From IMG/VR virus record IMGVR_UViG_3300045988_159115: a DNA stretch of 64,000 nt; one strand, written 5' to 3'. The position numbers were made by a program, and so were the translations under genes. Every line of letters starts with the position of its first letter. Positions within the stretch are counted from its first letter, which is position 1. The notes under the pieces are model-generated. The model did no database searches. It was not told the DNA's origin and worked only from the letters and a program-made list of their open reading frames with translations. Source of the stretch: a virus. Positions 2 through 49,030 of the stretch are shown piece after piece.

Positions 2-346
2 GATCATGAATCTTACATCAAAGCAACTGCAACAAGTAAAATTGTTGCTGGTGTTCATTCCGATGAGTATGCCATGCTTATCGGTGGTGATAAAGCAGGG
101 GATGGGGAAGATTATGTGAAGAAGAATATGGAGAACTATATCCCCGTAAGTCTCTGTGGTCGTGTCTTCTGTAAGTGCATTGGCAAGATTCATCGTGGCG
201 ATACGATTGTCGTATCTGATATTCCCGGTGTCGGACGAGCAAAATTACCCAACGATTATGTGGAAAATACACAGATCGTTGGATACGCAGTGGATGAAGA
301 CCTGAACGAAGAAATTCGTCGAGTCCGTATTCGGGTAAAGGGGTGA
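2..346 (+). CDS. tail-fibre/appendage protein, C-terminal fragment (5' end upstream of window)
   Basis: Frame open from nt 2 (DHESYIKATATSKIVAGVHSDEYAMLIGG...). The C-end YIPVSLCGRVFCKCIGKIHRGDTIVVSDIPGVGRA...VRIRV resembles peptidase-G2/intramolecular-chaperone-type fibre C-termini (by eye only). Confidence 0.5.
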   Translation, partial: DHESYIKATATSKIVAGVHSDEYAMLIGGDKAGDGEDYVKKNMENYIPVSLCGRVFCKCIGKIHRGDTIVVSDIPGVGRAKLPNDYVENTQIVGYAVDEDLNEEIRRVRIRVKG

Positions 347-352
347 TTTGAA

Positions 353-1216
353 ATGGCAAGTCAAGGTTCGAAGATTACTGCTGCAGATTTTACTTCACTG
401 AAGGCTCTTGTCAATCAAGAAATTGGTCGGCGAGGCAAGGCAGAAGGTACTGCACAGAACCAGAGTTACGGAAGCTTGTCTTCTTATGCTGGGTCAGGCT
501 ATCAATATACAACCACTCCTGCTGCTGGAGTAAAGATTGCCACTGAGCATATCACAAAGATCACAACACCGATCGGTGCAATCAATGGATCAACTCCTTC
601 CTTTTCCAGTGGAACTGTTGTAAGAGCATCTGATATTGCAAATGCCGCAAATACATTGAGCGGTCTTACCGTGATCAAAGAGAACGCTTCTTCCAGCGGC
701 TGTGCTGGTAAATGTAGCGGTCTCTGCTCTTCTGGATGCAATACAACATGCTCAAGTTGTTCCAGTAGCTGTGGCAGTGGATGCGCAACTTGTGCTAGTG
801 GCTGTTCTAGTGGATGCACGAATACATGTTCTGGCGGCTGTTCAGGTAGTTGCGATGGTAATTGCAATGGCTGTTCTGGCTGCGAAGGATGCAGTGATAA
901 CTGTAAAACAGATTGCAGCGGTGGGTGTAAAGAACGCTGTAATGCTAACTGCGCTAGTGATTGTGGCGGATCTTGTAGATTTACCTGCTTAGCATTATGT
1001 GGAAATTGCCAAAATTCTTGTGATAATACATGCTCTGGCCATTGCGGATCAAAATGTACAGATAGCTGTGACCTTGACTGTACTGGATCATGCAAAGGCA
1101 GTTGTACAGGCAGTTGTGACACCGACTGTAGTGGCGGCTGTAAGGGTTGTTCCGGTTCATGCGAAGGAAATTGTACAGGTAGCTGTAAGGGTTGTTCCGG
1201 TAAATTCTTATTTTAA
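353..1216 (+). CDS. cysteine-array fibre-like protein (about 115-aa N-domain plus 44-Cys C-x3/C-x2 repeat array)
   Basis: ATG lies 7 nt after the preceding stop. Residues ~116-285 (CAGKCSGLCSSGCNTTC...CKGCSG) have 44 Cys with 35 spacers of 3 and 8 spacers of 2 residues. Spacers are almost only G/S/T/D/N/K/E. DNA shows 12-nt periodicity at ~700-1200. Confidence 0.85.
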   Translation: MASQGSKITAADFTSLKALVNQEIGRRGKAEGTAQNQSYGSLSSYAGSGYQYTTTPAAGVKIATEHITKITTPIGAINGSTPSFSSGTVVRASDIANAANTLSGLTVIKENASSSGCAGKCSGLCSSGCNTTCSSCSSSCGSGCATCASGCSSGCTNTCSGGCSGSCDGNCNGCSGCEGCSDNCKTDCSGGCKERCNANCASDCGGSCRFTCLALCGNCQNSCDNTCSGHCGSKCTDSCDLDCTGSCKGSCTGSCDTDCSGGCKGCSGSCEGNCTGSCKGCSGKFLF

Positions 1217-1243
1217 TAGACCATGTGGAATGAGGTGCTATAA

Positions 1244-1825
1244 GTGAGCGTTTATAAACCCAATAATGATCTCGAACTTAAGAAAGTTTTCATAGAAAAT
1301 ACTCCGATAATTAAGTTCGTTTCTCATGATGTATTTGAAGACAATGATTGGAAAGAGTTCATGCAGCAATGCCCCGATAATTCGAATCAGTTCGAATGGT
1401 GCATTTGGGCGGCTGGAATTTTCCGTTGCGATAATATCATGGATGATAAGTTTGATACCTATGCAGCATACTGTGCGTCTGTGATTCAAAGTATTGCAAA
1501 GGATTGCAACGTAGAGTGCTCTGATGATCGTCTGATCGTTCTTGCATATGGTCTTGCAGCACGTACTTTCAATTTTGAAGCTGCAAAACTTGAAAAGTCC
1601 GATTATAACTTTGATGCAATGCTCAATGCATCTGATTACGAATGCACCGATGATATTGATTTCTTATCAATGTGGGAAATGCTTGTTATGACTATCCGGT
1701 TCATTCGTGTTCTTGATCCGTCAAATGTCAAAGCACTGATCAAAGTCATGAAAAAAGTAAATTCCATTCGTGATAAGTATAATGAAGTATATACCCGGAT
1801 GAGTAACATGACCGCTAATTATTAA
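1244..1825 (+). CDS. hypothetical protein (Cys-containing, acidic)
   Basis: GTG start 6 nt after a GAGGTG SD. Lies between the Cys-array gene and the radical-SAM gene. No recognisable motif. Confidence 0.65.
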   Translation: MSVYKPNNDLELKKVFIENTPIIKFVSHDVFEDNDWKEFMQQCPDNSNQFEWCIWAAGIFRCDNIMDDKFDTYAAYCASVIQSIAKDCNVECSDDRLIVLAYGLAARTFNFEAAKLEKSDYNFDAMLNASDYECTDDIDFLSMWEMLVMTIRFIRVLDPSNVKALIKVMKKVNSIRDKYNEVYTRMSNMTANY

Positions 1826-1850
1826 TATATTTTAGGGAGAGTGCACGTTT

Positions 1851-2150
1851 ATGAAAATTATTAGCATTACGACCCAAGAAAGTGAAGCCGTTGAGCGGGC
1901 TTATTATGAGTCGCAATCATATGAATCCATCGTTTCTATTCTCTGTAGAGAATTGAATGAGGACGCAAATCCTTTAACATCTGAGATGCTCCATCATTAT
2001 ATCGACTTATGCAAAACTGCAAAGATGCGTCTCAAATTAACGCAAGACAAGGTAATTGGCAGATACGTCGATAAGTCGGAATTTAACAATGCCAAGGTAA
2101 CATTTGATTTTGAGCGTGAGGAGATGTCGGTATCAGATGAAAAAGCATAA
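1851..2150 (+). CDS. hypothetical small acidic helical protein
   Basis: ATG with a GGGAGAG SD. Its 3' end overlaps the radical-SAM start by 14 nt, suggesting translational coupling. Confidence 0.65.
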   Translation: MKIISITTQESEAVERAYYESQSYESIVSILCRELNEDANPLTSEMLHHYIDLCKTAKMRLKLTQDKVIGRYVDKSEFNNAKVTFDFEREEMSVSDEKA

Positions 2151-3501
2151 TAAGCGTCTCTATGAAGAGTATACTGATATGGTTCAAAGACTGTATAAGA
2201 AAGACTTCAATACAAGCGGACCGTTATCAGCATTGAAAATTTGCAGGTATGTGACTTTTCAGATCACGAATGCTTGCAATCTTCGGTGTTCTTATTGCTA
2301 TGAGCATAATAAGAACTGTGGATCTATGAGTCTTGATACAGCCAAGAAAGTAGTTGACTATATTCTTAATCTGTATGAGGAAAACACATCTGACTTTATC
2401 TCCAAACAAACAAAGGGCGTTGTCCTTGATTTTATCGGCGGAGAGCCTCTTCTGGAAGCTGAACTGATTGAGCATATTTGTGACTATTGGTTCGAGCAGT
2501 GCTATAAGAGGGACATTCCTCTCGGCCCGTTTACAAGAATCTCATTTGCTACAAATGGTAAGGCTTGGTTCGAGCCTGCATCTATGCATCTATTTGAAAA
2601 GTACCATGATATCATGTCGGTCACGGTATCTATTGATGGCGTTCAAGAACTTCACGATATGTACCGTGTTGACAGCAATGGTGTTGGAAGTTTTGAAATG
2701 GCTTGGCGAGCTTTTCAAGATGCAAAAAACCGATACGGCTGGCTTAATTCCAAGATGACATTTGTTCCTGGATCAATCAAATATTTATACTCCAGTGTGA
2801 AAATGATGATTGATGAAGGATGCAATTATATTCACGGTAATTGCGCATATGAGCCCATGTATACAAATGAAGATGGGAAAAACTTGTATGATGAACTTAA
2901 GAAAGTCTCTAATTATATCATAGATGAGCATCCGGATGTATACTTTGCGATGCTTAATCCGGATGAATACGGTGAAGCAGTCAATTTAGAGCATGATGAC
3001 AGCAACTACTGTGGTGGCACAGGAAACATGCTATCATTTGCTCCGGACGGTAAAGCATATCCATGCATTCGATACGCTCCCATTTCTATCGGAAATGAGA
3101 AAGCATCTAAAGTATGCTTTGGCGATATCAATAATGGTGGACTGTACGCAACTGAGGAGCAGCGCGAAATTAAGCGTGAGTTGGATGCTATCACCCTGAC
3201 ATCACAGTCTACGGACGAATGCATCAATTGCCCTGTATCCAAAGGATGTGGATGGTGCTCTGGATATAATTACGAAAAATATGGTACCGCAAATAAGAGA
3301 TATACGGGAATTTGCAAAGCGCACAAAGGCAACGTCCTTGCTGTGTACTATTATGTGAATACTCGATATCTTAAACTTGGCGATACCGAACCGAAGAAGA
3401 TTAAGCTGCCTTATGACGAGGTAGTAGAAATTCTCGGTAAAGAAGAAGCTGATAATCTTTTCGCTCTTGAAAAGGAAGCTTTTTCTCACTACGAAATGTA
3501 A
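2137..3501 (+). CDS. radical SAM enzyme with C-terminal SPASM-type domain (anSME / peptide-maturase-like)
   Basis: CNLRCSYC (CxxxCxxC) near the N-terminus. The C-terminal Cys clusters CGGTGNMLSFAPDGKAYPC and CINCPVSKGCGWC...C are typical of SPASM auxiliary Fe-S domains. ATG 2137 follows a GAGGAGA SD; the track ORF begins at TTG 2104. Confidence 0.85.
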   Translation: MKKHNKRLYEEYTDMVQRLYKKDFNTSGPLSALKICRYVTFQITNACNLRCSYCYEHNKNCGSMSLDTAKKVVDYILNLYEENTSDFISKQTKGVVLDFIGGEPLLEAELIEHICDYWFEQCYKRDIPLGPFTRISFATNGKAWFEPASMHLFEKYHDIMSVTVSIDGVQELHDMYRVDSNGVGSFEMAWRAFQDAKNRYGWLNSKMTFVPGSIKYLYSSVKMMIDEGCNYIHGNCAYEPMYTNEDGKNLYDELKKVSNYIIDEHPDVYFAMLNPDEYGEAVNLEHDDSNYCGGTGNMLSFAPDGKAYPCIRYAPISIGNEKASKVCFGDINNGGLYATEEQREIKRELDAITLTSQSTDECINCPVSKGCGWCSGYNYEKYGTANKRYTGICKAHKGNVLAVYYYVNTRYLKLGDTEPKKIKLPYDEVVEILGKEEADNLFALEKEAFSHYEM

Positions 3502-3556: not shown

Positions 3557-3597
3557 ATATCATAGCAGACGGTTAAATATGAAAGGAAGTGTTTATC

Positions 3598-3879
3598 ATG
3601 ACAAAAGTTTTTTCTATAGTTACTTTGATTAGAAATTGTGGTATTGAAATAGAATCATCTTATTTTGATCATAATAAAGCAATCAATCGTCTTCATGAAC
3701 TTTGCAATTACTATAATGAAGAAATGCGTAATGATCATGTACCGGCTGTTGAATGTCATGAGCCGTATGAAGTTGATGAAAAGACTGAGAAGATATTTTA
3801 CCGAGTAAAATATAAAGAGTGTCCAGGGTTTGAGCATCATATTATTATAGCATGGATTAGGGAATTGGAGGTTCAATGA
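3598..3879 (+). CDS. hypothetical small protein
   Basis: ATG after a GAAAGGAAG SD. Has the N-terminal beta-strand plus F-x-x-x-x-A signature shared with the small-protein family. Confidence 0.65.
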   Translation: MTKVFSIVTLIRNCGIEIESSYFDHNKAINRLHELCNYYNEEMRNDHVPAVECHEPYEVDEKTEKIFYRVKYKECPGFEHHIIIAWIRELEVQ

Positions 3880-3880
3880 T

Positions 3881-4273
3881 ATGGAAGCGTATGTTATCGT
3901 ATGCAGAAATGGTGATTCCATGTGGGTACATGATAAAACCTTTACTACAATAGACGAAGCAGCCTTATATGCTTGCTGTTCTATTTCAAGTCCCGTGTTG
4001 TGGAAAGTATGCCCGATTAATGTTGATATCTCTAATGAGATGAATGCCTCTGATACACTACGTGGACAGAATAAGGATGTCTTGATTGAAGTTCTCTATG
4101 ATCCGAGGAATCATTTAGGTACTAGGCACATTGTCTCTCCTTCTCATATAAAGTATTATGCGTTTCCTACAGAGCAAGGCAATATCAATGACCTTAAAAG
4201 AAGTTTAGTGCACCGTATTTATCAGGGGCTTGAAACGCTTGATGACGAGCATGCCATAAAGCTCATTATATGA
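3881..4273 (+). CDS. hypothetical small protein
   Basis: ATG 10 nt after GGAGG. The N-terminus MEAYVIVCRNG...FTTIDEAALYA carries the shared small-family signature. Confidence 0.7.
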   Translation: MEAYVIVCRNGDSMWVHDKTFTTIDEAALYACCSISSPVLWKVCPINVDISNEMNASDTLRGQNKDVLIEVLYDPRNHLGTRHIVSPSHIKYYAFPTEQGNINDLKRSLVHRIYQGLETLDDEHAIKLII

Positions 4274-6397: not shown

Positions 6398-7555
6398 ATG
6401 ATTGAAAATATTGGAATAATTCAGAAGATGGAATATCCAGCGTCTTTGATGGAAGCTATAAAGGAAACTATTCCGATTGGATACACGAGTGAGAATGGGG
6501 TTCTCGGCTTATCTCAGCTCAGTGATAAAGAAATCGCTGATGCTTTTATCCAAGCGGAAAAAGACACTTCCAATGGCACAAGTTATCTGGAGATGTATTT
6601 CAAAGATAAGAAGACGATGCGGGAAATTTCTGATACCTACAAGATTTCTCGCTCGAATTTCCGCAGACGTTGCGAACGTGTCATCTGGAGACTTTTCTCT
6701 ATGCCGAAATTTAGGTATGTCACATTAAAGTCTCCGTCCGATTTCCATTCTCCAGTGGATGGCCATCTTTGGTATAAAGGCGGGCCAATTACTTTCGAAA
6801 ATGCAAAAGAGATCAGTATTCGTGAAATCCTTTATCTCGATCTACCTTGCGAAATCCATAATATTCTTTGGCGTGCTAACTATCGTACACTCGGAGCAAT
6901 TTGGGAAGGATTTCGCAATAAGAGTATTTTCGAGGTAGAAGGGCTTGGACCTAAGCGTCTTGATGAAGTTGCTCACATCATTGAAATTTATCTTCACGTA
7001 AAACCACTTTCTCGTGAAATGCTTCAATATGAAGCTGAGCCTGTATGCAGAGTGGATTTCGACAACACAGATATCCATGCAAGAAGATGTGTCAAATTCA
7101 TGACTCCTCTCTTGTCTGAGGATAGTATCTTGATCAATATTCAGAGCGCGTTTACTGACGATGACCAATATGAAGAGTTAAACTTTGCAGAGAAATACAG
7201 CGCCGCAATTTTCCAGCATGCAGAGATCGAAGATGGCCCTCACGGGAAGTTGCTCTTCCATATTGATAGGAGTGCACAGAGTCTTGCGTATTACAAGTCC
7301 GTTGGAATTAGTGCACAGCACGATATCACCATCACGGTTCCTTCGAAGCAGTATAAGATGGTGGTATCGAAAGTAAACTGGAAGCCGTGTTATGTACTCT
7401 TTAAGAGCGAGGGTTTCATCATTATCGAAGTTGGCCTTGATAAAGGCCGATATGTGAAGTCTGTTATCGCAGGCTCCTATAAGAGCTTTACGGTAGATAA
7501 GCTCCGCTGGATCACCAAGACTCTTGGATTCCCGAAGGATTTCTTAGTCGGTTAA
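6398..7555 (+). CDS. putative transcription factor: sigma region-4-like HTH plus RNAP alpha-CTD-like helix-hairpin-helix
   Basis: TMREISDTYKISRSNFRRRCERVIWRL resembles sigma70 region 4.2. LYLDLPCEIHNILWRANYRTLGAIWEGFRNKSIFEVEGLGPKRLDEVAHIIE resembles alpha-CTD (LELTVRSANCLK...NLGKKSLTEIK). Confidence 0.55.
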   Translation: MIENIGIIQKMEYPASLMEAIKETIPIGYTSENGVLGLSQLSDKEIADAFIQAEKDTSNGTSYLEMYFKDKKTMREISDTYKISRSNFRRRCERVIWRLFSMPKFRYVTLKSPSDFHSPVDGHLWYKGGPITFENAKEISIREILYLDLPCEIHNILWRANYRTLGAIWEGFRNKSIFEVEGLGPKRLDEVAHIIEIYLHVKPLSREMLQYEAEPVCRVDFDNTDIHARRCVKFMTPLLSEDSILINIQSAFTDDDQYEELNFAEKYSAAIFQHAEIEDGPHGKLLFHIDRSAQSLAYYKSVGISAQHDITITVPSKQYKMVVSKVNWKPCYVLFKSEGFIIIEVGLDKGRYVKSVIAGSYKSFTVDKLRWITKTLGFPKDFLVG

Positions 7556-7557
7556 AT

Positions 7558-7602
7558 AAAAGAAGGGATACCTAATTGGCTATTAGGTATCCCTTCTTTT
7601 TT
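7558..7602 (+). terminator. rho-independent terminator (repeat family, see 43911-43950)
   Basis: AAAAGAAGGGATACCTAAT-TGGCT-ATTAGGTATCCCTTCTTTT followed by TT. Confidence 0.85.
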
Positions 7603-7659
7603 CGGATCATAGTAAATTATAGCCTTATTCACTATATCTTAATTAAGGAGGATAAACTT

Positions 7660-8460
7660 ATGAAAATTAAATTATTAGAAGATTTTATCATCAAGCATGC
7701 GCACGAAATCATTTATTGCGTACAGGAATTTCCTAGTTATATCGTTGATGGTGTCGGGATTATCAAGTATTACCATCACTTTGCAAGAACTGAATGCTCA
7801 AAAACTGGGCTTTCTGCTACATTTGCTACAGAGGAAAATCTGTATGTGAATAAACTCTTCTATGCCGCTAGTAAGATTGCAAATCCAATTAAGATATTTG
7901 ACGCATTTGGTTTTGGGACTACCATTTTTGATTATGGTAAGTATGATCTGGACGAAGTAGAAAAGACTTTGTTTCTACCTGAACCTCCGAAGCAAAATGA
8001 TTCCATTGAAATCACTGCAGTTGATCCTCCAGCACCTGTAGTATTTGCTATTATGCAAATTTGCTTTACAAAGTTTGATTCTGGAGAAGAAATCTTCCAT
8101 GGGTCTACTATCTGGAAAAATCAGATTTACCGGACTCGGATTGAAGCAATCAAGGAATATCGAGCAATGAAAGCTATGGATGAAGCAATCCATGCACGCC
8201 GTAAAGCCTTTACCGAAGTGACTGAACTTCAAAAAGATGATTGCTATACAGAAGAATTTTCTCTCTATCAGGAAGACCACTATGGAAAGAAAATTCATAC
8301 CTATCAGATTATTGCTCTCAGTCTCAATTCTAAGATGAATTCTGATATGCGTCTTGAAGCTGATAATCTGCATCAGGATTACTTGATCAATGATTGGATT
8401 TATAAGAAGCCTTCGGTTTCTGAAGAAAATAAACGGGAGGAAAATGTTTGTGAGCGATGA
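7660..8460 (+). CDS. hypothetical protein
   Basis: ATG 7660 follows an AAGGAGGA SD. The track ORF start at 7576 runs through the terminator. Confidence 0.7.
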   Translation: MKIKLLEDFIIKHAHEIIYCVQEFPSYIVDGVGIIKYYHHFARTECSKTGLSATFATEENLYVNKLFYAASKIANPIKIFDAFGFGTTIFDYGKYDLDEVEKTLFLPEPPKQNDSIEITAVDPPAPVVFAIMQICFTKFDSGEEIFHGSTIWKNQIYRTRIEAIKEYRAMKAMDEAIHARRKAFTEVTELQKDDCYTEEFSLYQEDHYGKKIHTYQIIALSLNSKMNSDMRLEADNLHQDYLINDWIYKKPSVSEENKREENVCER

Positions 8461-10534: not shown

Positions 10535-10589
10535 AATAGGCACATACGATAGAATTCTTGCCAGAGAACATCTATCGTATGTGCTTTAG

Positions 10590-10673
10590 TGCCGCCAACG
10601 GGACTTGAACCCGTACGCTGTTTCCAGCAAAGGAGCTTAAGGCCCTCGTGCCTGCCAATTACACCACAGCGGC
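10590..10673 (-). tRNA. tRNA-Leu(UAA), class II with long variable arm
   Basis: Reverse complement: GCCGCTG-TG-GTGT..GCAC-G-AGGGC-CTTAAGC-TCCTT-TGCTGGAAACAGCG-T-ACGGG-TTCAAGT-CCCGT-TGGCGGC-A. The T-arm and acceptor pair. The anticodon loop is CT-TAA-GC with one C:T mismatch at 31:39. Confidence 0.75.
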
Positions 10674-23468: not shown

Positions 23469-23663
23469 AATATGATTTCTCCTTCCAAAAAATAGATTAA
23501 TTTTCTGTGACCGAGAACCTTAGATTCTATATTCCTGGATACGTTTAAGATAATGGGCATAAAATATCAAAGCATTGCTGAAATGATATGTTATACCTTC
23601 GTGAGTAGTAGTCTGGAATCTGCTTCTCACGATAGCGTCAAAATAAAATCTGGAGGTTTTACA

Positions 23664-25937
23664 ATGGCAGAAAATGTAAAGTATTCCAATAAGGAAATGC
23701 TGCTTAAGGCCAACGAAGAGTTGCAAGGCTCGAATAGTCTTATCGGCATGACGATGCTGGGTATGCCCCAGTACAACTCCTCCATGCGATCTATTATGTT
23801 TACTTCGCATGAACGCCAGGTCGTGAACTTGCTGAACCCGGATTTTCCGGCAGTATTTACCAATGGCGAAAATGTTGTCGGTCGTTATTCGACTGGCTAT
23901 AAGCAGGCAAAAGGGAACTACGAGGTCGTAGATAAGGTGGTTAAGTATGAAGACATCATCGACCACCCGACAACGTATACCCTTTTCGTCTACGATAAAG
24001 AGAAAAAGTATTATGAGGCGTGGAGTCGTTGCGATTCTGAATCTTTGACCGAAGTCTTCGGTTATGAGTACAATAACGACTACATGGATAGCCTCGAAGT
24101 TGGAGATGAAGTCCCTAAAGGAACCGTAATTAAGAAATCTCGTTCGTATGATGATTCCATGAACTATGGGTACGGTATCAACGTGCCCATCATGTACACT
24201 ACGGAATCCTACACGTCTGAAGATGCTTGCGTTATTTCCCAAAGTCTTCACGACCGGCTTCAGTCCATCGAGATCAATACGGTCTCTATTGGTGTCAACG
24301 ACAATGACTTCCTTCTGAACCTTTATGGCAAAGGAAAGAAGTATAAGCCTTTCCCGGATATCGGTGAGTTCTCTACTGGCGAAGTCGCTGCAAAGCGTAC
24401 TCTTTCGAAAGAGCAGCTTCTCAGTGAGTTCAAGGATGACTCTCTGACTCATTCTGGAGAAAGTGATGTTTCTTACTATAAGAAAGGTCAGGTCGTTGAT
24501 ATCACCGTATACTGCAATAATCCCGATATCGAAGATACTCCGTTTACTCATCAGATTCTCAAATATCTGAAGAGCCAGCGGAAGTACTATCAAGGAATTA
24601 AAGAAGCATGCGAAATGGTTTTTGATTCTGGAGAGAAATACTCGAAGGAAATCAATTATCTCTATAAGCGTGCTATCGAGTTCCTTGATGAAGATAAGCG
24701 TTGGAAAGATCAGGATAGTCTGTTCTCCAACGTGAAAATCGAGATTACCGTCAAGGGTGTTGTGAGAGCAGATATCGGTCAGAAGATTACTGGCCGTTAC
24801 GGTAACAAATCTGTTATCTCTGCTATCCGTCCGGACGATGAAATGCCGTTCTATTACGACGATAATGGCAACAAGGTTACCATTGATCTGCTGTTCAACG
24901 TGCTGGCTATCATCAACCGCACCACAGCATTCCCCATTTTCGAAATCACCATGAACTTCATCTGCAATAAGGTGAGAGCTCAGATGAAGATGAGAAAGAC
25001 TCGGAAAGAGAGGGAAGAACTTCTCTTTGGTATTATTGACGACTTTAACCACAAGCAGCATGACGAAATGAAAGCTGTTTATGACAAGCTGTCCAACAAG
25101 GAGAAGGATGCATATATCCAGCAAGTTATGGACGACCACATCTATATTCATCAGAAGCCGATGTGGGAAGATGAGCCTATCTTCTATCGTCTACTGAAGA
25201 TCTATGAGAAGTACGATTTCTTAACTCCGTACGATATGTACATCAACAAGTTTGGCCGTACTATCAAGATGCTCCATCCCATGTATGCTGGTGAGATGTA
25301 TATTCTGAAGCTGAAGCAGACTTCCCGTAAAGGTTTCTCTGTCCGTAGCACTGGCTCTATCAACACAAAAGGTCTTCCTGAAAGAAGTTACCGCAATAAG
25401 AACTTCACAGAGCTTCGTTCTTCTACTCCGATTCGCTTCGGCGAGTTTGAGACGTTGAACTTCTCTATCGGCATGGATCCGGAAGATATTCAGATTTTCA
25501 ATCTGATGTATCGTGCATCCGCAAAGGGTCGTCGTGATCTTGCAAATGGCCTGATTACTGGTAAAGACCAGTTTAAGGTGAGCAAGACTTACACTTCTCG
25601 TGTGAACGAGATATTTGCCGTATACCTGAAGAGTCTCGGTATTGAAGTTGACTTCATCGACGATGGCGACTCTATCCGTGAATATGATGATCGTCATATC
25701 AAGATCGAAACCATTGACGATCAGGATTACATGGGTACCGAGTATGATCTGATGCTGGTAAAGCGCAAGAAAGCTGTCGAGAAAGAAGTTCTTGCAAAAG
25801 AAGGCATCATTGATGCCGACAAGTTTAAGCAAATCGTTATGGAAGAGCTTAAGACAAACAGCTATGTGGTTGGCCCGGATAAGTCGGAGTATGATACGAC
25901 TCCTGCTTTCCAGGACGATACCGACCACATGAATTAA
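23664..25937 (+). CDS. multisubunit RNA polymerase beta subunit, C-terminal half
   Basis: [21 protein letters not shown] aligns to [27 protein letters not shown] to [24 protein letters not shown] to GDKMAGRHGNKGVIS, and [21 protein letters not shown]...[11 protein letters not shown] to [20 protein letters not shown]...QRFGEMEVWAL. ATG lies 7 nt after GGAGG. Confidence 0.85.
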   Translation: [757 protein letters not shown]

Positions 25938-28709: not shown

Positions 28710-28781
28710 TCATTCTGACAGACAGGTAATTCGCATATTCAAGACCTATGCGAAAGAAACCCAATATGGAGGTTGCGCAAT

Positions 28782-30194
28782 ATGGCTAAAAATCACAAGC
28801 AACATACAGTTCGCGTGAGACGCATCAACTGGGATGTTGAGTACCTTAAAGACATCATTACGAATAATGGCTTCACCATTACGGAGCCCGCAGTCGTCAA
28901 GCTTGACGATACCAAGCAGAAGAGCCTCTATGGTGCACGGTCGATTCTGTACGGCACAAACTACGAAGATGAGAACGCGTTCATTGAGCGCTATCGTTGT
29001 CAGTGTGGCGAGTTCAAGGGTAAGCTGTTTGAGGGCGAGACTTGCCCTCTCTGTGGAACCAAGGTTGAATATCAGGGAACCAATATTGAGTTCACCGGTT
29101 GGATTAGTCTTGGTGGTAACTACATCCTCAATCCTTTCTATTATCAGAAGCTCGCTTCTTGTATGAAGAAAGGCATGCTGGATTCCATCATCAACGATAA
29201 GTATCAGGTTGATGTAAACGGTAATCGTACCCGTTTCATTGATCCCGATGAACAGGCTGCAACTGGCGGATTTGCTGGCATTGGCCTCGTGGAATTTCGG
29301 GAGCATTTTGAGGAGATTATCGAGTTCGCAAAGATGAAGAAGAAAGGAAAAGCGGATGAGCTGGATCGGCTTCTTGCTGAAAAGAGTTCGGTCTTTACTT
29401 CTCATATTCCTATCTATTCTACGCTTCTTCGTCCTCAGAGTGCAACTACCGACACCTATTACTTCAACACGATCGACAAGCACGTGAATCCTCTGTTTAC
29501 TTTGTCTGAAAAGTTAAAAGGAAGCACAGAGATTGATCGTGCTCTCATCCTGTCTCGCATTCAGTATCGTGTCAATAAGCTTTGGGCAACGAACTTCGAA
29601 TTTATCACCGGTAAGGATGGATGGATTCGTGGTCAGATTCTTGGCGGCGCGTTGAACTATACTTCTCGTAACGTCATTATTCCGAACCCGGAACTTCGTG
29701 ACTCTGAAGTGGATCTTTCCTACAACACCTTCCTTGAGCTGTTTAAGTTTAAGATCATCCACTATCTGATGGTGATGGATGATATCTCTCTGACACAGGC
29801 TTGGCAGGAATATCAGGATGCATATAAGTTCAATCCGCACATCTATGAGGTGATGAACTTCATCATTGCAAAAGAGCAGCCGAGGATCCTTATCAACCGT
29901 AACCCGACCTTGAACTACTACAGCATCTTGCTGATGAAAGTTCGTAAGGTAAAGCAGGACGTGACTGATTTTACACTCTCGGTTCCGCTGTCTGTCCTTC
30001 CTGGTTTGAATGCAGACTTCGATGGCGATATTTTGAATATCATCGGCATCATGAATAAGGAACTTGAGCATGCGTTCCGGAAGTTCGACCCTGTTACTCG
30101 TATGATTATCTCTCGTGATAGCGGATTGCTGAATCCGTACTTCATGATTGAGAAGTCCCAGATGATTGATTTCTATAACTTCTGCACGTTATAA
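28782..30194 (+). CDS. multisubunit RNA polymerase beta' subunit, N-terminal fragment (set 1)
   Basis: Zn-ribbon CQCGEFKGKLFEGETCPLCG. Exact catalytic loop NADFDGD (PGLNADFDGDILNI). Ends ~60 aa after the loop, as in split phage beta' genes. Confidence 0.85.
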   Translation: MAKNHKQHTVRVRRINWDVEYLKDIITNNGFTITEPAVVKLDDTKQKSLYGARSILYGTNYEDENAFIERYRCQCGEFKGKLFEGETCPLCGTKVEYQGTNIEFTGWISLGGNYILNPFYYQKLASCMKKGMLDSIINDKYQVDVNGNRTRFIDPDEQAATGGFAGIGLVEFREHFEEIIEFAKMKKKGKADELDRLLAEKSSVFTSHIPIYSTLLRPQSATTDTYYFNTIDKHVNPLFTLSEKLKGSTEIDRALILSRIQYRVNKLWATNFEFITGKDGWIRGQILGGALNYTSRNVIIPNPELRDSEVDLSYNTFLELFKFKIIHYLMVMDDISLTQAWQEYQDAYKFNPHIYEVMNFIIAKEQPRILINRNPTLNYYSILLMKVRKVKQDVTDFTLSVPLSVLPGLNADFDGDILNIIGIMNKELEHAFRKFDPVTRMIISRDSGLLNPYFMIEKSQMIDFYNFCTL

Positions 30195-39473: not shown

Positions 39474-42400
39474 TTAAGATTCGTAAATCTCTTTCAGTTT
39501 GCGTTTCAGTTCAACGATCACCTTATTGCCAAGAACGGTTATCAGAATTGAAGGAACCTGGCGTTTCAAGATTGAAGACGGTGGGATAAGGGAAGACACC
39601 TCTTCTTCAGGTCTGAATTCACTATAAGGCTCGTAGCCTTCAGGTATAATTTCACCAACGATACCCTTCAAAGCGGTGAAGTAGGCCACCTTGTCTCCTA
39701 CACCAAGGATATCACCGTGTTCGATATAGAATTCGATCAGTACGCTATCATCAACTTTCTGTCCTTTGATGACGCCGTAGATGTTCGGCTCGATCTTACC
39801 GGTGGTCTCATTGACAAGCAGGCCACACTTCACGATAGAAGAGTCCTCTTCAGCGTACTTGTCGAGGAATCCCTTTTTCTCTTTCACCGTCTTGTAGTAG
39901 TCGTTAACGACTTTACGAAGACTCGGACTCATCTCATCCAGTTCGACAGCTGAATAGATCTTGATCCCAACGATTGTACCGGCATACTTAGATCGAACGA
40001 CATTCTTACTTTCATTCTCCATGAGCTCTTTATTCTCATCAGAAAGAGTAGCAAGCAATTTATTCAGATCACTATCTTCGAATGATGTATCGTAGGAAAG
40101 CAGAGGATCGCCAATATGGACATGATCACCCACCTTACGCATATCATACACATTTGAGTTCTTACCAACAACTACTGATTTGCAGAAAGTCATATTGGCT
40201 TGTGCATCTCCAGCAAGTTTACGGGTAATAACGGTACAGTCGTTGTATGTGTTATAAGAAGAGATAATAGCAACTTTTTCCAGAACACCGACATTCATAC
40301 GAAGGCCATTGAGTTTATCTTCCTTGAAGAAGTCTTTGTGCCAAGCAAGGGCAGCATCTTTTTTGAAAGAATCACCCACTTTATACTTGGTCACAAGTTC
40401 ATTGGAAAGATAGAAACCACCGCCGCCGTTCTTTACGATATTCGGTGCAAGATTGATTGCTTGATGTTTACCGCTCTTATATTCAACCATGAGGATCTTG
40501 CTCTTCGGATCATAGTCAATGACTTTGCCATCCTCGGCAGCATTGACAACGAAATCCGTAGAAAGATCGAAGCGGATTGCTTCATCAGATCCATTTGAAA
40601 TAAGAGCAGGAGATGCATTCTGCACAGGAATAACATGCTTTGACTGCTTCACAGCCATTGCAATACGAACAGAGTCATCTCGAGTATTACCAAGAGGATA
40701 AAGAAGTTCAGCAGGAGAGAACAGGTTCACATCCTTCAGATCTTCTCGTTCGTTTTCTTTGATATCAACGTATCCACGTGCAGATGTGATATTCGGCTCC
40801 ATTGTAAGAGTACGATTAATACCACAGTTACCATCAGGAGAAGTGCTCATACCGATAACACCGATCATAGACGGGTCATAAGAACGCTTTTCCTCGGAAT
40901 ATGCACGATCAACGTTGACACCACGATATCCCTTTGCAGTGATATTACGATCTTTCTCAAGTTCAACGACAGGATTCAGTGTAGAATAATCTTCTACTGT
41001 CTGGAGACCCATCAATTCCTTGATAACGCAGTTTCTAGGAAGTGTCAGTTTCTTTTTACCGCCGCTATTCTTATAATCGAGATAAGCATTGGAAATCTGA
41101 TAATACAGAATAGCGGGAATGACTTCAGAAGAACGGACACGAGCAATACGCTGGCTAGACTCAAAGGTATAGCTATCGTCAACGAGTAAGCTATTTGCAT
41201 AAATGCAAAGCTCGATGAGATCAGTAGGAAGACCAATGTCACGAAGAATCTCTTCTGTGATAGGATCAATCATGAACTCATAATAGTTACCGATAGCGGA
41301 CATGATAGCCACTTTACCGTAGACTTTCTTGAAATAATCCACGTATGCTTCCGCACTATTATACTCATTGAGATCATGAGACTCTGTATCCAGAACCTTC
41401 ATGCCATTCATCAAGAGAGCTGTTGCCATATCCGCGTCATACAGCATATAGCAATCCTTAAACCGAATGACACCCTGACTTGCTTTTACCTGCTTCGGAT
41501 AAGACTTACTGAATTCATACTTCAGATTCATCTTCTTGAAGACTGATGTAATTCCTTCCCAATAGAGCATGTAGACAATTAGAGGCATTGTCTGACTCAT
41601 CATCGTCGCAGTTGAATACATGACCTTCTTGGTATTACGAGTCTTCAGATACTCATTTCGAATATCAGGAGGAAGCTGATCGACAAGAATATCGCAGATG
41701 GATTCACCATCACTTGCGGACTGAGTTTCGGAGTTAATCCAAATCTCTTTATTCTTATCTCTCCAACCAATAAAGATCATACTGCCATTATTGGTTTTAG
41801 GAGCTTCCAGATCATGATCTTCCACATACTTCTGTGCGTCTTCCTGACTAAAGAAAATCGTACAGGTAGGAGTTTCGAATTTTCGAATAACCTTGGAGAA
41901 CTCATCGTATTCCAAAGTAGTCAAATACTGCTTATTGGTGACATATACGTTACCAACTGTGAAATGCTTCATAGCATTCTCATTAGACGTAATGAGTTTC
42001 ATGAGACGCTCAACAGCAGAAATAGATTTTGCACCGGTACGACGGACGAAAATCTTATTGTAGTTGGAAACGATCTGTACTGTATCAGGGCCAGTCTTTA
42101 CGACAGGATATAAGAAATTCTGCTTATTGATCAGCTTCTTATTACCGCCGAGATACAGGAATTTATCGTCAAGGAACTTCGGAATATCAACCGTAACAAC
42201 ATGACGCTGATGCTTCTCATCTTCCAGAGTAACTTTCATCGTCATCTTGTAGTTTAACTCATCCGACGTATCTTCACTCTTGATATCAATGACATAGAAA
42301 GGCATACCCTTCTTATTCAGACAAGTAAAGTCGTTCATCAAATCAGCAGGCATAACATTTTCGATGTAATCCTTATTGATATTTGAGAACTTCACTGTCT

Positions 42401-43832
42401 TCATATTATCATTGATCGTATGAAGAGATCCAGAAATGTCTTTTTTCGGGATAGGACGCTTTGCAGCATTCATCGCTTTCACATCTTGGAAAGTCATATT
42501 CTCAAGAGTAATGGATTCCTGCTTCTTACGCATTTGAGCGTCACGTGCTGTACTAATAGGTTTTGACGGAACCGTGGTAGCTTGCATTACCTTATACATG
42601 CTTTCCACAAGTTCCTTATCATTATCAAGATCCATCTCAGACTTTGCCTTGATATAATCAACGGCAGCTTTACTTTCAGTAGGATCTTTTCCATTTGATA
42701 CAGCTTCGATCTCTTTTGTAGTCTCTTCGACTTTCTGATTGATCTTCTTATTGATCGTATCCTTAGCAATCTCAACTTCTGCTTTTCGAGCAATATCATT
42801 TCCGATATAAGAAGTCTTAGACCCTTGAGTATTCGTGATAGGCTTCGCTACCACAACTTTCTTTGAAGAAGTATTCTTCACCGTCACCGGGTTCTTTTTT
42901 GCCGCGGGCTCGTTCGATACTTTAATCGTCGAAGCTGCTTCAGGAGGCAACTCTTTTTGAACAACCGGCGTGGTATTATTACCAGTAAGATTATATCTAG
43001 TAGAAAGAGTAGCCTTAATAACATCTCTTTGCTCTTCATCTTTGACAGCCTTCGTATCTGATACTTCATCCCAGCGAGTAGACTTCTTAAATACACGATT
43101 CAGAGATGTTCTGAACTGTGATGCATTAACTTTCGCCATTTTACTAGGATTTACACGTAAGATATAAGAATCTGAATAAAAATAGAAATCAATATCCAGT
43201 TTCTTAAATGAAGGAACCTCATTCAGAATAGAATAATAAAATTTGAAAAGAATATTATTGATATTCTGAGTGAAATTCGTTCCAAAGTTATCAAAGAGGT
43301 CAACATCAACGAGGACAAACTTTTGCGGATACTGGGAGCACTGTTCTCCATTGATGATGCTGTAAAGGTAAGCCCAGAATAAGCTTACTTTTTTCTTTGG
43401 CTGCTGATTAATGGTACACTGGTCAAATACTTTCAGATACATTGAGAGATCAAAAAAAGTATTATAGTCGGGAGTCTTATTCAGAAGCATAGGAGGATGC
43501 TCATGAAGAGAACTACTATGAATTCTATCATAAAGATCCTTTTTTCCAGCTGCATCTCTGACATTGTAAGTTCGCCCACCAATTGTACCATGATATCGGA
43601 TGTTGTGGTACAGATAACGGTATTTACCATCTGCTGAGCAATTCTTCGTATTGGTTGCTACATGGATTACTTCAGCAGGCGTGGTAGCCATAATGAATGC
43701 AAGATTTCCATGCCCGGGTTGAAGTTTCTTCATCTTTCCAGGATGCTCTGGATCAGGAATGACAACTTCTTTCGGCAGATATGCTTTTCGAGCAACTGCA
43801 TTCATATATGGGAGAGACGTAATATATACCAT
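39474..43832 (-). CDS. multisubunit RNA polymerase beta-like subunit with ~520-aa N-terminal extension (set 2 or virion-type?)
   Basis: [19 protein letters not shown] aligns to [44 protein letters not shown] to [41 protein letters not shown] to [18 protein letters not shown], and [10 protein letters not shown] to [27 protein letters not shown] stands in place of GDKMAGRHGNKGVIS. Ends at ...[16 protein letters not shown]. Confidence 0.8.
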   Translation of the reverse strand: [1452 protein letters not shown]

Positions 43833-45514: not shown

Positions 45515-45825
45515 CCTTTATACCCTCGGTTTCCCGATATTTAAGTACGGGAGTAGACTATACCATACTTGCTTAGTGACTTCACTAAGTAGCGCCCGTA
45601 TTATAGTCGTTGAACGTCCTTCCCTAAGTGGAATAAATCCATACGAGTATTTCTACTCGCAGAAGTTTCGATGCGATGATTATCCAATCTCTAAGTCTTT
45701 TTACCATACCTGATTCTGTTAAAATCAGCCATATAGTTGTCGCCATATCTATACTTGGTAACCTAGAGCTCTAAGGAACTTCCCGCAGTTTAACAGGTTT
45801 AACGTGGACTATATTGAATAATTCA
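45515..45825 (-). mobile_element. group I intron (ORF-less) in nrdD
   Basis: The 5' splice site follows U (exon GUGGAU pairs with IGS GUCCAC at 45804-45809, with a U:G wobble). The last nt is G. Core-like elements are CUGCGGGAAG (45779-45788), GUUCAACGACUAUAA (45601-45615) and GGUAUAGUCUAC (45553-45564), with GACUAUA/UAUAGUC able to form P7 and an 8-bp hairpin between them. Confidence 0.8.
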
Positions 45826-48800
45826 ATCCACAGGTGCGTCGAGCGACGCTCATCTTATGCTGATCACGATTGCCGCAATTCGGGCATTCCCAAACCAACT
45901 TGCCACCATCATCAACTACTTTGATTTCTCCATCGTAGCCGCAGTTCATGCAATAGTCAGACTTGATATTGAGCTCTGCATACATGATATTCTCATAGAT
46001 ACACTGCATAACTTCAAGAACTGCAGGAATATTATGAGTCAAATCAGAGCATTCAATATAACTGATAGCACCGCCCGGAGAAAGCTTCTGGAATTCAGCT
46101 TCCTGAATGAGCTTATCGAACGGATTAATCTTTTCAAAGACGGCAGTGTGATAGCTATTAGTGATATAATTACGATCTTTGCCATCAAGCTTAATAAAAA
46201 CGTCATCCCCAAAACGTTTCTTAAGGCAGCGAGCGAACTTGTAAGTGGTATTCTCAATCGGGGTACCATACAGAGAATAATCAATATGCTCTGCTGTCTT
46301 CCACTGATTGCACTTATCATTCAGAGCCTGCATGACCTTAAGGCCAAATTCTCTACCAACGCCTTTATCCATATGAGAATGGCCAGTCATATACTTGACA
46401 CACTCATACAGACCCGCATAGCCAAGCGAGATAGTAGAGTATCCATTAAACATGATATCGCCGATCTTAGCATCCATAGGAAGTCGTGCGAATGCACCAT
46501 GACGCCAAAGAATAGGAGCAACATTAACAGATGTATCCTTGATACGATCAATACGTGCACGCAATGCTCGATGGCAAAGCTCAGTACGCTCTTCAAAGAG
46601 CTGCCAGAATTTATCGTAGTCTCCACCAGAAGAGAAAGCCAGATCAGGGAGAGAAATGGTTACGACGCCACAATTAAATCTTCCATAATACTTTCCCTTG
46701 CCGGTTTTCGGATCTTTATATGGAGTAAGGAAACTGCGGCAGTTATGGCTGTAAATACCAGAAATAGTGAAATGCTCACTTCCAGTTGTTACGTCATAAG
46801 TATCTTCTTTCCGTTCAAGCATATGAGATTCTACGATATGGCACTGAAGTTTATTATTTAAACTAGCAAGATTCATTTCGTGCTTGATATAGTGATTCCG
46901 CTTTTTCTCAGACACGAGATTTTTGACAATTTCATCTGTAGCAATAAAGCAAACTTGATAACGAATGGTATCATACCGGCCAGTGCCTTTATAATGATTT
47001 TGATACATCGTAGCAGGGATGCCCAGCGACTGCGCCAGCATCATTTGCTGAATAGCAAGCTCTTTATTGGTCGATCCAATTTGGACAGCAGTGAATTTCC
47101 CATTCGAATTATTAAGGTATCCATCAGCATCAATCATGCCGCAAAGGAAACCAATGCGAGCAGATCTATTCGATGTAAAGATATCGGACGGAATATGACG
47201 GTTTAACTTAATAATTCCGCCGAATTCTTTAATCATTATATCAGCAAATTTAGGAATGGCAATTCCATCATCGGTAGCCACAGAAACGATATCTTTGTAA
47301 ATTCCTTTTCTTTCACGATTCTGATTTACTACTTTCGTGGTAATTCCATAGAATCGCTTCAGCCGCTCTTGGAGAGCTCCGATAATATCATCTTCACCCT
47401 CATTTGCTAACGAAACCGCCAGCTTTTTAATGTAAGACGAATCGCAAATCAGAATGCCAAGAAGCCAAGCCAACTCAGGATCATAATCATTATTTTCATC
47501 ACTGATATGAGATTTGATATCAACCTGAATCATGTCGTCTTCTTTTAAATCTTTTGCAAAAACGACTCCACGGTTTTCCGTTTCAAACGGATGATCCGGT
47601 GTGACATCGAGGCATCTTCCGTTATTGAACTTGATTCTCATAACGTCGCACTTCGAATTTCGAATGATTCGATAACACAGAGTCCAACCGTTCACATGAT
47701 CATAGATCATCACGTCTTTCAAATCCATGTACCAATCATTTTCACGACCGGGCTGAAGCTTTACTTCAAAGAAGGGCATGAGGCGCCACCACATTCGGCC
47801 AATTCCTTCAACGTAAGTATTCTTCATGAATTTATAGGTTACTACTTCATCACCGACCGCACATCCCATGCATGGATACACGTCGCCCTTCAGCTGTTTC
47901 ATTACTTTTGCTGAAATATAGTCAGGAACCATGCGTTTGGCCGTGCATTGTGCAGCTAAAACAGTGGTACTCCAGTACTTTGTGCCAGGTTTAATATTGT
48001 CTTCATCGAGGACATAGATGAGCTTCGGGAATGCAGGAGTAATCCATGCACCCTGCTCATTCTTCATGCCCTGAATACGCTGGCGGAGGAATTCTTCGAT
48101 GATCATGACAAGTTCGTCACGGTATTCATCAGTTTCATCAATATACATGAAGACGGTGAGGAACGGAGCCTGTCCATTGGTTGTAGACATAGAGTTCACC
48201 TGATAGATAAAAGTCTGGCAACCATCTTCGACTTCTTTACGAGTATCAAGCTCAGCAAACTTAGCTGCTTTTCGTTCATCAAAGCCCCAGCTAAGATATT
48301 TCTTCAGATAGATATTATAGGAGTCTCTCACGAACGGTGCGAGATGTGTCAGAGTGATAGATATGCCACCGTACTGGGAAGAAGTGACTGCCGTAATGAT
48401 CTGAGTAGAGATCGTGGCGGCAGTAATAAAACGATGCGGTTTGTCGATTTTGGTACCATTGATAACAGTACCATTCTGAAGCATATCATCAAGATTGCAG
48501 AGTGAGCAGTTGGTAAGAACACTCTGTGCATAATAATCCGCATCATGGAAATGAATAATTCCGGCGTCATGTGCATCCACAACTTCCTTGGGAAGCAGAA
48601 TACGCCGGGTAACATCCTTTGAAGTAATACCAGCGATATAATCACGCTGGACAGAAACGATTTCGGGGTCCTTATTGGAATTCTCTTCGTTCACTTCTTC
48701 ATTCGTGTGATTGAGAAGTTCCATAATTGCATTATCCGTGGTATTGTGAGAATCACGGACAAGAGATCTCTTAAAACGATACTCCGTATAGGCCTTCGCA

Positions 48801-49030
48801 ACATCCTTACGGTCAGTACCCATGAGATCATAAATGACGAGATCCTGAATCTCCTCTACAGACTTATCTTCAGGAATAGCAGCGATCTCATCTGCGATAT
48901 TATTCGCAATTTTGGTGGAAGAATCGGATAGTGAACCATCGACCTCAATAAATGCCCGCTGAATTGCGGATACAATTTTTGATCTGTCGAACTCCACTAC
49001 CCGGTTATCACGTTTCTTCACAGATTTCAT
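45826..49030 (-). CDS. nrdD: anaerobic ribonucleotide reductase NrdD, exon 1 (includes intein)
   Basis: N-terminal ATP-cone (RDNRVVEFDRSKIVSAIQRAF). Class III RNR body. Zn-ribbon CMNCGYDG...CPNCG. The glycyl-radical motif ARRTCG lies at the exon end. Confidence 0.9.
46742..47863 (-). mobile_element. intein (374 aa) with LAGLIDADG homing endonuclease, inside NrdD
   Basis: The host motif is split as ...VYPCMG / CRSFLTPY. The intein starts CAVGDEVV and ends GIYSHN, followed by Cys+1. LAGLIDADG blocks are LAWLLGILICDSSY and FLCGMIDADGYL. Confidence 0.85.

Follow-up and report, generated by a model that had tools for sequence, protein, structure and literature searches.

The characterized relatives closest by score to the enzyme considered here, the radical S-adenosylmethionine (radical-SAM) enzymes PapB, CcpM, CteB, QhpD, and the SCIFF maturase, all form thioethers at cysteine. 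PapB works ring by ring on the tandem C-x3-D units of freyrasin and is the nearest model for a periodic cysteine array, and QhpD installs several cysteine thioethers in QhpC, a structural subunit of a larger exported complex. Closer still by sequence is a bacterial CXXX-repeat system that was defined by comparative genomics and for which we found no biochemical study in the searchable literature. Its enzyme family, TIGR04115, bears the name "radical SAM peptide maturase, CXXX-repeat target family". Here, we analyzed the first 64 kb (64,000 nucleotides, referred to as the window) of a 259,889-bp human-gut contig, IMG/VR virus record IMGVR_UViG_3300045988_159115, in which an open reading frame (ORF) for a protein with a CXXX array (the target) and a gene for a radical-SAM/SPASM enzyme share a strand and are separated by 921 nt. 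A sequence-only reading of this DNA had suggested that the phage staples a structural fiber protein with many thioethers, a chemistry like that of peptides made on the ribosome and then modified post-translationally (RiPPs). The observation is real and more general than first noted. Five genes, encoding a tail fiber, the two-domain target, a ~190-aa protein, a ~100-aa hairpin protein, and an enzyme assigned to the TIGR04115 family or its immediate vicinity, make up a module whose target–enzyme cassette directly follows tail-fiber genes in myo-, sipho-, and jumbo phages, in which enzyme and target are linked almost without exception, and which has been duplicated as a unit.

The cysteine-array target and the linked radical-SAM enzyme

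The array of the 287-aa target contains 44 Cys between residues 117 and 281, with 35 C-x3 and 8 C-x2 spacings, and its DNA has a 12-nt period, just as the sequence-only reading had described. Cys accounts for 26% of the array, as against 1.6% across five of the window's large ORFs, and the spacers consist of Gly (31), Ser (31), Thr (13), Asn (11), Asp (10), Lys (7), Ala (6), Leu (4), Glu (3), Arg (2), Phe (1), Gln (1), and His (1). Base-identity autocorrelation of the array DNA was 0.43, 0.40, and 0.41 at lags of 12, 24, and 36, against a background of ~0.21. Because this autocorrelation is clear and Tandem Repeats Finder returned tiny arrays only, the periodicity lies at the protein level and does not stem from a recent DNA repeat or slippage. 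The N-terminal domain of the target (N-domain) was then searched with phmmer against 1.84 billion representative sequences (E < 1e-3). This search resulted in a family of 122 representatives, each standing for a cluster at 50% identity, so that the family comprises at least 122 such clusters. Among the 81 members of at least 130 aa, 72 have a CXXX array directly C-terminal to the N-domain, and the remaining nine are apparently truncated or frame-shifted. All 44 Cys are kept in five close orthologs, which share 95% identity in the N-domain and 80–92% in the array, where the spacers vary. An origin of the array by chance or by reading in the wrong frame was ruled out by the continuity of N-domain and array within one ORF, the conservation of Cys, and the enrichment in Cys. 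The cysteine-rich frame of 353–1216 is the real reading frame.

Homologous arrays were recognized by PF27846 (tSAM_targ_Cxxx_rpt) and TIGR04114, and in 68 of 75 phage targets the array begins with the motif C-x3-C-x-G-[LMI]-C. The spacers of phage arrays match those of bacterial arrays in composition, with Asp at 4–7% of spacer positions. Array size across the family runs from ~12 to 113 Cys. At one locus (L160, 6995–10099), two giant targets are adjacent, one of 434 aa with 87 Cys and the other of 557 aa with 113 Cys, and a single 111-aa partner and a single enzyme are encoded for both. Two further family members have extra domains without a Pfam or PDB match, namely a beta-rich domain of ~185 aa N-terminal to the N-domain (P0065, 375 aa) and an insertion of ~140 aa within a loop of the N-domain (P0071, 336 aa), which may be added binding modules.

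In its AlphaFold2 (AF2) model, the N-domain has a predicted local distance difference test score (pLDDT) of 80–92 and helices at residues 10–29, 64–78, and 92–107, while the pLDDT of the array is only 30–50 and hence uninformative. Neither profile searches nor Foldseek found a relative of the N-domain in the PDB, Pfam gave no match, and the matches in BFVD were uncharacterized members of the domain's own family only. The description of the cysteine-array protein as fiber-like was therefore not borne out, as its N-domain is modeled as small, helical, and without known relatives. Cultured phages yielded no homologs of the N-domain; one uncultured gut scaffold matched, and a second N-domain subtype went unmatched.

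The best NCBIfam match of the window's enzyme was TIGR04115 (E = 1.6e-88, 297.6 bits; curated cut-off 350 bits), which led the next family by 148 bits. PapB came second (E = 1.3e-43, 149.5 bits; cut-off 340), with lower matches to CcpM, QhpD (8e-20), the SCIFF maturase, and anSME (9e-14). Of ten other phage enzymes, eight scored over the TIGR04115 cut-off, at 353–473 bits, one scored 376.6 bits, and one 245 bits, and the enzyme of Segatella scored 630 bits. The radical-SAM motif CNLRCSYC (C47-x3-C51-x2-C54), which had been spotted from the sequence, is accompanied by SPASM Cys at positions 292, 310, 362, 365, 371, 374, and 393, and none of these three and seven Cys varies among the homologs from phages (75) and bacteria (40). 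The Pfam SPASM match taken alone was below threshold (16 versus 21.5 bits). The closest solved structure is that of CteB (5wgg), and because the alignment starts only at CteB residue 94, the N-terminal domain of CteB has no counterpart in the phage enzyme. An identical sequence in NCBI nr, DAY74420.1 from a Caudoviricetes metagenome-assembled genome, already carries the TIGR04115 family name. By profile comparison, the enzyme is thus a member or near-member of TIGR04115, a family of radical-SAM enzymes with CXXX targets. Since a curated bacterial system exists and an identical protein is so named, the pairing of enzyme and target is not new in itself, and to that extent the earlier reading was overstated. 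The radical-SAM genes at five further loci (L136, L142, L154, L161, and L172) contain many in-frame TAG codons where homologs have Gln (FQVT becoming F*VT). TAG is apparently recoded in these phages, and the cassette is therefore also present in stop-codon-recoded phages.

Linkage across phages and the small accessory proteins

The linkage of target and enzyme was examined from both sides. The enzyme-based set consisted of 20 viral loci, MT835573, and the jumbo phage SPN3US, loci with upstream DNA being counted, and an ORF with N-domain and CXXX array ends ~900 nt upstream of the enzyme in 22 of 22. A 14-sequence profile of the N-domain then identified 79 further viral loci, in 75 of which the enzyme is adjacent. 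Contig ends account for three of the four misses; the fourth (L133, 6281–7591) has two N-domain/CXXX genes, the first of which is apparently frame-shifted. Target and enzyme thus co-occur in related and distant phages with hardly an exception; gene order within the cassette varies between loci. The near-obligate linkage of enzyme and array in bacteria and phages alike argues that the array is the enzyme's substrate, and the substrate relation is as well supported as comparative genomics permits.

This linkage also bears on another explanation, in which the array binds a metal (Zn or Fe-S) or is merely Cys-rich without cross-links, and the enzyme carries out other chemistry, such as anSME-type oxidation of Cys to formylglycine or epimerization, or acts elsewhere. 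Export of the bacterial homologs through the twin-arginine (TAT) route is typical of cofactor-bearing proteins, but cross-linking and folding prior to export would explain it equally. The C-x2/3-C spacing resembles metallothionein-type ligand sets, a conserved acceptor residue is missing from the spacers, and SPASM enzymes do catalyze other reactions, with anSME among the weaker matches, whereas the thioether chemistry common to the closest characterized relatives points the other way. We regard metal binding and these other chemistries as quite unlikely.

Two small genes separate target and enzyme in the window, as reported before, and both encode acidic proteins. A gene of ~155–220 aa directly follows the target in most loci (72 loci), wherever the enzyme lies; there is none in L110 and L188, and there are two in L185. 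The ~190-aa proteins diverge fast, and the 193-aa protein of the window matched nothing in Pfam, PHROG, NCBIfam, or the PDB. A degenerate TIGR04119 or TIGR04116 protein was considered and ruled out, as hhalign gave probabilities of at most 2%. We propose that the 193-aa protein is a target-specific partner or chaperone.

The other gene, of ~95 aa, always abuts or overlaps the enzyme start. In the window the overlap with the enzyme's ATG (2137) is 14 nt, and in three loci (L139, L150, and L162) the gene is fused to the enzyme N-terminus. The 99-aa protein has no direct hidden Markov model (HMM) or BLAST match to TIGR04116, but comparison of the ~95-aa family with bacterial TIGR04116 by hhalign gave a full-length alignment at a probability of 93% (E = 2.9e-7) with the first alignments and 62% (E = 7e-5) with a second alignment pair, while unrelated control pairs gave at most 2%. 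The two proteins are also equal in size and in their linkage to the enzyme, and the 99-aa protein is a probable remote homolog of TIGR04116, the family named "CXXX repeat peptide modification system protein". Its AF2 model (pLDDT 93) is a long helical hairpin preceded by one beta strand and followed by two more, with a small three-stranded sheet; Foldseek found generic helical hairpins only in the PDB (E ≥ 0.28). Because fusion at the enzyme N-terminus places it where CteB has its recognition domain, a role in substrate handling is suggested. This analogy leads us to propose the ~100-aa protein as the enzyme's substrate-handling partner, in line with the earlier suggestion that the two small ORFs act as recognition or chaperone partners.

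Tail-fiber setting, module duplication, and related phages

The target gene begins 6 nt after the end of a tail-fiber gene (346 to 353) that extends past the window start. Its full-length homologs (L008 and L005; 318–391 aa) match PF22337 (Phage_fiber_rpt) and tail-fiber PHROGs, and the fiber C-terminal domain of ~115–120 aa directly precedes the target in 21 of 21 close loci (L001 and L004–L023). Among 83 more distant loci, 60 have a preceding protein, of 57–843 aa, that ends in one conserved ~30-aa motif, LLWIDT..GGLKYYNGSAWV, and PHROG matches place these proteins among tail fibers, some of them collagen-like (E down to 1.6e-85). A P2-like phage (L185) has the cassette after gpU, gp25, Baseplate_J, and Tail_P2_I and before a Peptidase_G2 protein, and in a siphovirus (L188) it lies downstream of the tape measure and distal tail genes. 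The cassette is thus embedded in tail-fiber modules, as the sequence-only reading had proposed. A conserved fiber C-terminus followed by a conserved N-domain in the next protein is the pattern that would be expected for two docking parts.

In relatives of the window phage, the module of fiber, target, accessory, and enzyme genes is present as two complete, diverged, and inverted copies (L189, 1287–10244; L190, 80–3328). The first encodes a fiber of 391 aa, a target with 44 Cys, proteins of 193 and 99 aa, and the enzyme; the second, a fiber of 372 aa, a target with 29 Cys, proteins of 216 and 100 aa, and the enzyme. Identity between the modules is 79% for the last 150 aa of the fiber, 57% for the enzyme, 48% for the target, and 30% for the ~100-aa protein. 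As the whole module was duplicated, the fiber gene is part of the inherited and duplicated unit. The two ends of a 258,971-bp contig start inside one fiber gene each (L006 and L190), and the contigs of the relatives break between the two inverted fiber genes. Most likely, the window contig breaks at this same place, with a second module just upstream of base 1. Families of paralogous ORFs of ~65–130 aa (MF.MTKVYS..., MKVYAI...) lie in inverted orientation to either side of the fiber/CXXX island; besides those in the window (Table 1), they were found in L008 at 215–1086 (−) and 7452–8226 (+).

A variant of the system is present in SPN3US and ~70 related Salmonella, Erwinia, Escherichia, and Proteus jumbo-phage records, in the order of two tandem array ORFs, gp165, and the radical-SAM genes gp164 and gp163, the last of which matches TIGR04115 best (3e-36). 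These array ORFs have a different N-terminal region of 57 aa that is conserved throughout the ~70 records, and they are mostly unannotated. In SPN3US (JN641803/NC_027402; L003/L105), the array ORF with 21 Cys lies at 2094–2486 of the locus and that with 20 Cys at 2497–2901, corresponding to about 143,828–144,220 and 143,413–143,817 on the complement of JN641803. The former lacks an annotation, and the deposited gp166 (locus 2570–2905) overlaps the latter out of frame with an Ala/Val/Leu/Arg-rich translation; genes for Cys arrays are prone to annotation loss or wrong-frame calling. For SPN3US and its Erwinia relatives, cultures, amber-mutant genetics, and published virion mass-spectrometry data are at hand, making the system testable. 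In the data for SPN3US, the neighboring virion proteins gp167–171 and gp173 are lost from tailless particles, and gp163–166 were undetected in virions, the array ORFs being absent from the searched database (PMC5105663 Table S4).

The enzyme and target could also be a true pair whose product does not become part of the virion, either a released, RiPP-like product for which the N-domain serves as a long leader, or a fiber assembly factor that is not incorporated. Other radical-SAM RiPP systems do have long leader domains, but the N-domain is folded (~100 aa, confidently modeled) and better conserved than the array, and recognition does not need it, given that a TAT signal replaces it in bacterial targets. 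The bacterial relatives are exported, and in two loci (L130 and L139) lysis genes come directly after the cassette; yet a protease, an exporter, or a signal peptide was found in none of about 100 phage cassettes examined, and array size, which reaches 113 Cys (L160), is far beyond that of peptide natural products. A gene after a fiber gene often encodes a chaperone, which has to be weighed against the co-duplication of the module with its own fiber gene. That gp163–166 were unseen in SPN3US virions is in line with a non-virion product, bearing in mind that the array ORFs were outside the searched database. Taken together, such a product is unlikely. A virion location of the target is instead suggested by its position, by the C-termini of the preceding fibers, and by the co-duplication with the fiber gene.

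We also considered whether the phage recently captured the cassette as a host island that has no role in its biology. Prevotellaceae and other Bacteroidales are plausible hosts and commonly carry the bacterial system (541 matches among species-representative genomes), but the phage enzymes are only ~32% identical to the Segatella enzyme, the phage targets have an N-domain family of their own, the post-fiber position is fixed across unrelated phage types, and the cassette occurs in TAG-recoded phages and in Salmonella/Erwinia jumbo phages, which makes a captured island highly improbable. One record, MT837480.1 ('Bacteriophage sp.'; L002), has a radical-SAM gene 100% identical to Segatella copri chromosomes together with TatA/TatC-like genes and no phage genes, and probably represents bacterial DNA that was misfiled under phages.

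The remainder of the window encodes four split phiKZ-type RNA-polymerase beta subunit genes, a DnaB-like helicase, a virion structural protein, and an NrdD-like anaerobic ribonucleotide reductase, with an NrdG-like CX3CX2C protein just downstream of the latter. The NrdD-like protein matches in two separated stretches around an insert of ~370 aa, and since residues 454–647 match a DNA-primase PHROG, the insert may be an intein or homing element. The RNA-polymerase subunits and the NrdD- and NrdG-like proteins point to a phiKZ-like jumbo phage of an anaerobe; near-identical DNA was not found in cultured phages.

Table 1. Positions of the module genes and other features in the window
Feature	Position	Strand	Size	Remarks
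Tail-fiber gene, 3' end	2–346	+	C-terminal ~115 aa	Frame 2 open from base 2; ends ...RRVRIRVKG
Target ORF (N-domain and CXXX array)	353–1216	+	287 aa	
Target N-domain, helical, new	353–700	+	Residues 1–116	phmmer family, AF2 model
CXXX array, C-terminal tail SGKFLF, stop codon	701–1216	+	Array residues 117–281, 44 Cys	Cys counts, domain matches of homologs
Acidic protein	1244–1825	+	193 aa, pI 4.6	Follows target in most loci
Acidic protein	1851–2150	+	99 aa, pI 4.9	TIGR04116-like by profile-profile comparison
Radical-SAM/SPASM enzyme, CXXX-repeat target family	2137–3501	+	454 aa	TIGR04115 best match
Paralogous small ORFs	3589–3879, 3881–4273		~65–130 aa	
tRNA-Leu(TAA)	10589–10673	−		
RNA-polymerase beta subunit gene, split	23553–25937	+		phiKZ-type
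RNA-polymerase beta subunit gene, split	28773–30194	+		phiKZ-type
RNA-polymerase beta subunit gene, split	39474–43832	−		phiKZ-type
NrdG-like protein	about 45325	−		CX3CX2C
NrdD-like anaerobic ribonucleotide reductase	45809–49030	−		Two matching stretches
RNA-polymerase beta subunit gene, split	54220–55767	−		phiKZ-type

Proposed mechanism and comparison with known systems

On balance, the explanation that we favor, with moderate confidence, is that of a phage CXXX radical-SAM maturation system within a tail-fiber module, whose array is cross-linked and docked on the fiber as a distal element. In the reducing, anoxic cytoplasm of the host, the enzyme and its ~100-aa partner would process along the array, with the ~190-aa protein holding or delivering the target. 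The cysteines would be converted into covalent intramolecular cross-links, and by analogy with PapB and CteB we infer that these are most likely thioethers from Cys sulfur to carbon. The rationale for thioethers is that disulfides are unavailable in such a cytoplasm; the NrdD and NrdG-like proteins encoded in the window speak for an anaerobic setting, and TAT export of the bacterial homologs fits a substrate that is cross-linked prior to export. The N-domain would then dock the cross-linked, protease- and redox-proof module on the C-terminal tip of the preceding fiber protein, where it might act as an adhesin, spacer, or cap. The more specific picture, in which the array is stapled into a covalently laddered rod or knob that docks on tail-fiber tips, is put forward tentatively, as something rather less than an even chance.

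A number of observations weigh against this explanation. The window's own enzyme scores under the TIGR04115 cut-off, and the searchable literature holds no experimental data on any TIGR04115 member, bacterial or viral, so that the chemistry of the phage enzyme is an extrapolation from far lower-scoring enzymes (PapB at 149 bits). Neither phage nor bacterial arrays have a fixed acceptor residue in the spacers, and Asp, the acceptor in the C-x3-D units of freyrasin, is rare at 4–7%. With the Segatella protein as query, phmmer found TIGR04119 at 81 bacterial loci and at zero phage loci. At L133, the only clear exception to the linkage, the 7 kb to each side contain no radical-SAM gene. The second hhalign test of the 99-aa protein, at 62%, was moderate. 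A PqqD-like RiPP recognition element (three strands, three helices) was also tried as an identity for this protein and was ruled out by the modeled fold. The N-domain has no structural relative with a fiber or trimer fold in the PDB or BFVD, and the evidence for the target in the virion is gene context.

Searches of the literature for phage ranthipeptides, phage-encoded SPASM enzymes, and the SPN3US radical-SAM genes returned nothing relevant. If the proposed system operates as described, it would be the first case of enzyme-installed covalent cross-linking of a virion protein, and radical chemistry would harden a tail component where disulfides cannot form, a new principle of virion assembly that might account for the resistance of gut phage fibers to proteases and anoxia. 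Phage tails would be a main natural habitat of a RiPP-type maturase family, with the system widespread in gut phages and lying unannotated in the genetically tractable SPN3US. For TIGR04115, this would mean a biological context and natural substrates of very large size (up to 113 Cys), of interest for RiPP enzymology and for hyper-cross-linked protein materials.

Among known systems, the bacterial CXXX system is the closest. The Segatella cassette, as seen in L002, encodes a target with a TAT signal (TIGR04117/TIGR04114), the TIGR04115 enzyme, the SPASM-only protein TIGR04119 ("CXXX repeat peptide maturase"), and the 90-aa TIGR04116. It has in common with the phage version an orthologous or near-orthologous enzyme, a target with Cys at every fourth position, a small partner that is probably homologous, and tight linkage. 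The targets differ in that the phage protein has a helical N-domain of ~110 aa where the bacterial one has the TAT signal, a twin-arginine motif being present in 87 of 97 bacterial targets and in 0 of 75 phage targets. The phage version also has an additional gene of ~190 aa, no TIGR04119, a conserved CxGLC start of the array, and its setting in a tail-fiber module.

PapB with the ranthipeptide freyrasin and CteB with the SCIFF-type thermocellin resemble the phage pair in the radical-SAM/SPASM architecture of the enzyme, PapB being the second family match and CteB the closest structure. The phage enzyme nevertheless scores far under the cut-offs of these families and has no fused N-terminal recognition domain, and its presumed substrate is a protein of 190–560 aa with 20–113 Cys rather than a short peptide. 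A precedent for a protein as the substrate of a SPASM radical-SAM enzyme is provided by QhpD, although QhpC has few cross-links, a non-repetitive sequence, and no phage context.

On the virion side, gp38 of T2/S16-type phages is a distal tail-fiber adhesin with glycine-rich repeats that is encoded just after the fiber gene. It offers an analogy in its post-fiber gene position and in a variable distal part that is of low complexity and rich in Gly and Ser, and docking on the fiber tip is proposed by analogy between its N-terminal part and the N-domain of the target; the two have no relation in sequence or fold, and gp38 needs no modifying enzyme. The isopeptide cross-links of the HK97 capsid likewise give a virion protein covalent robustness, but they are autocatalytic and link subunits, in contrast to the dedicated radical enzyme proposed here to act on a tail component before assembly. 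The phage system is thus a distinct variant of a curated but uncharacterized radical-SAM system and not a wholly new kind, and what is new in it is the architecture of the target and the biological setting.

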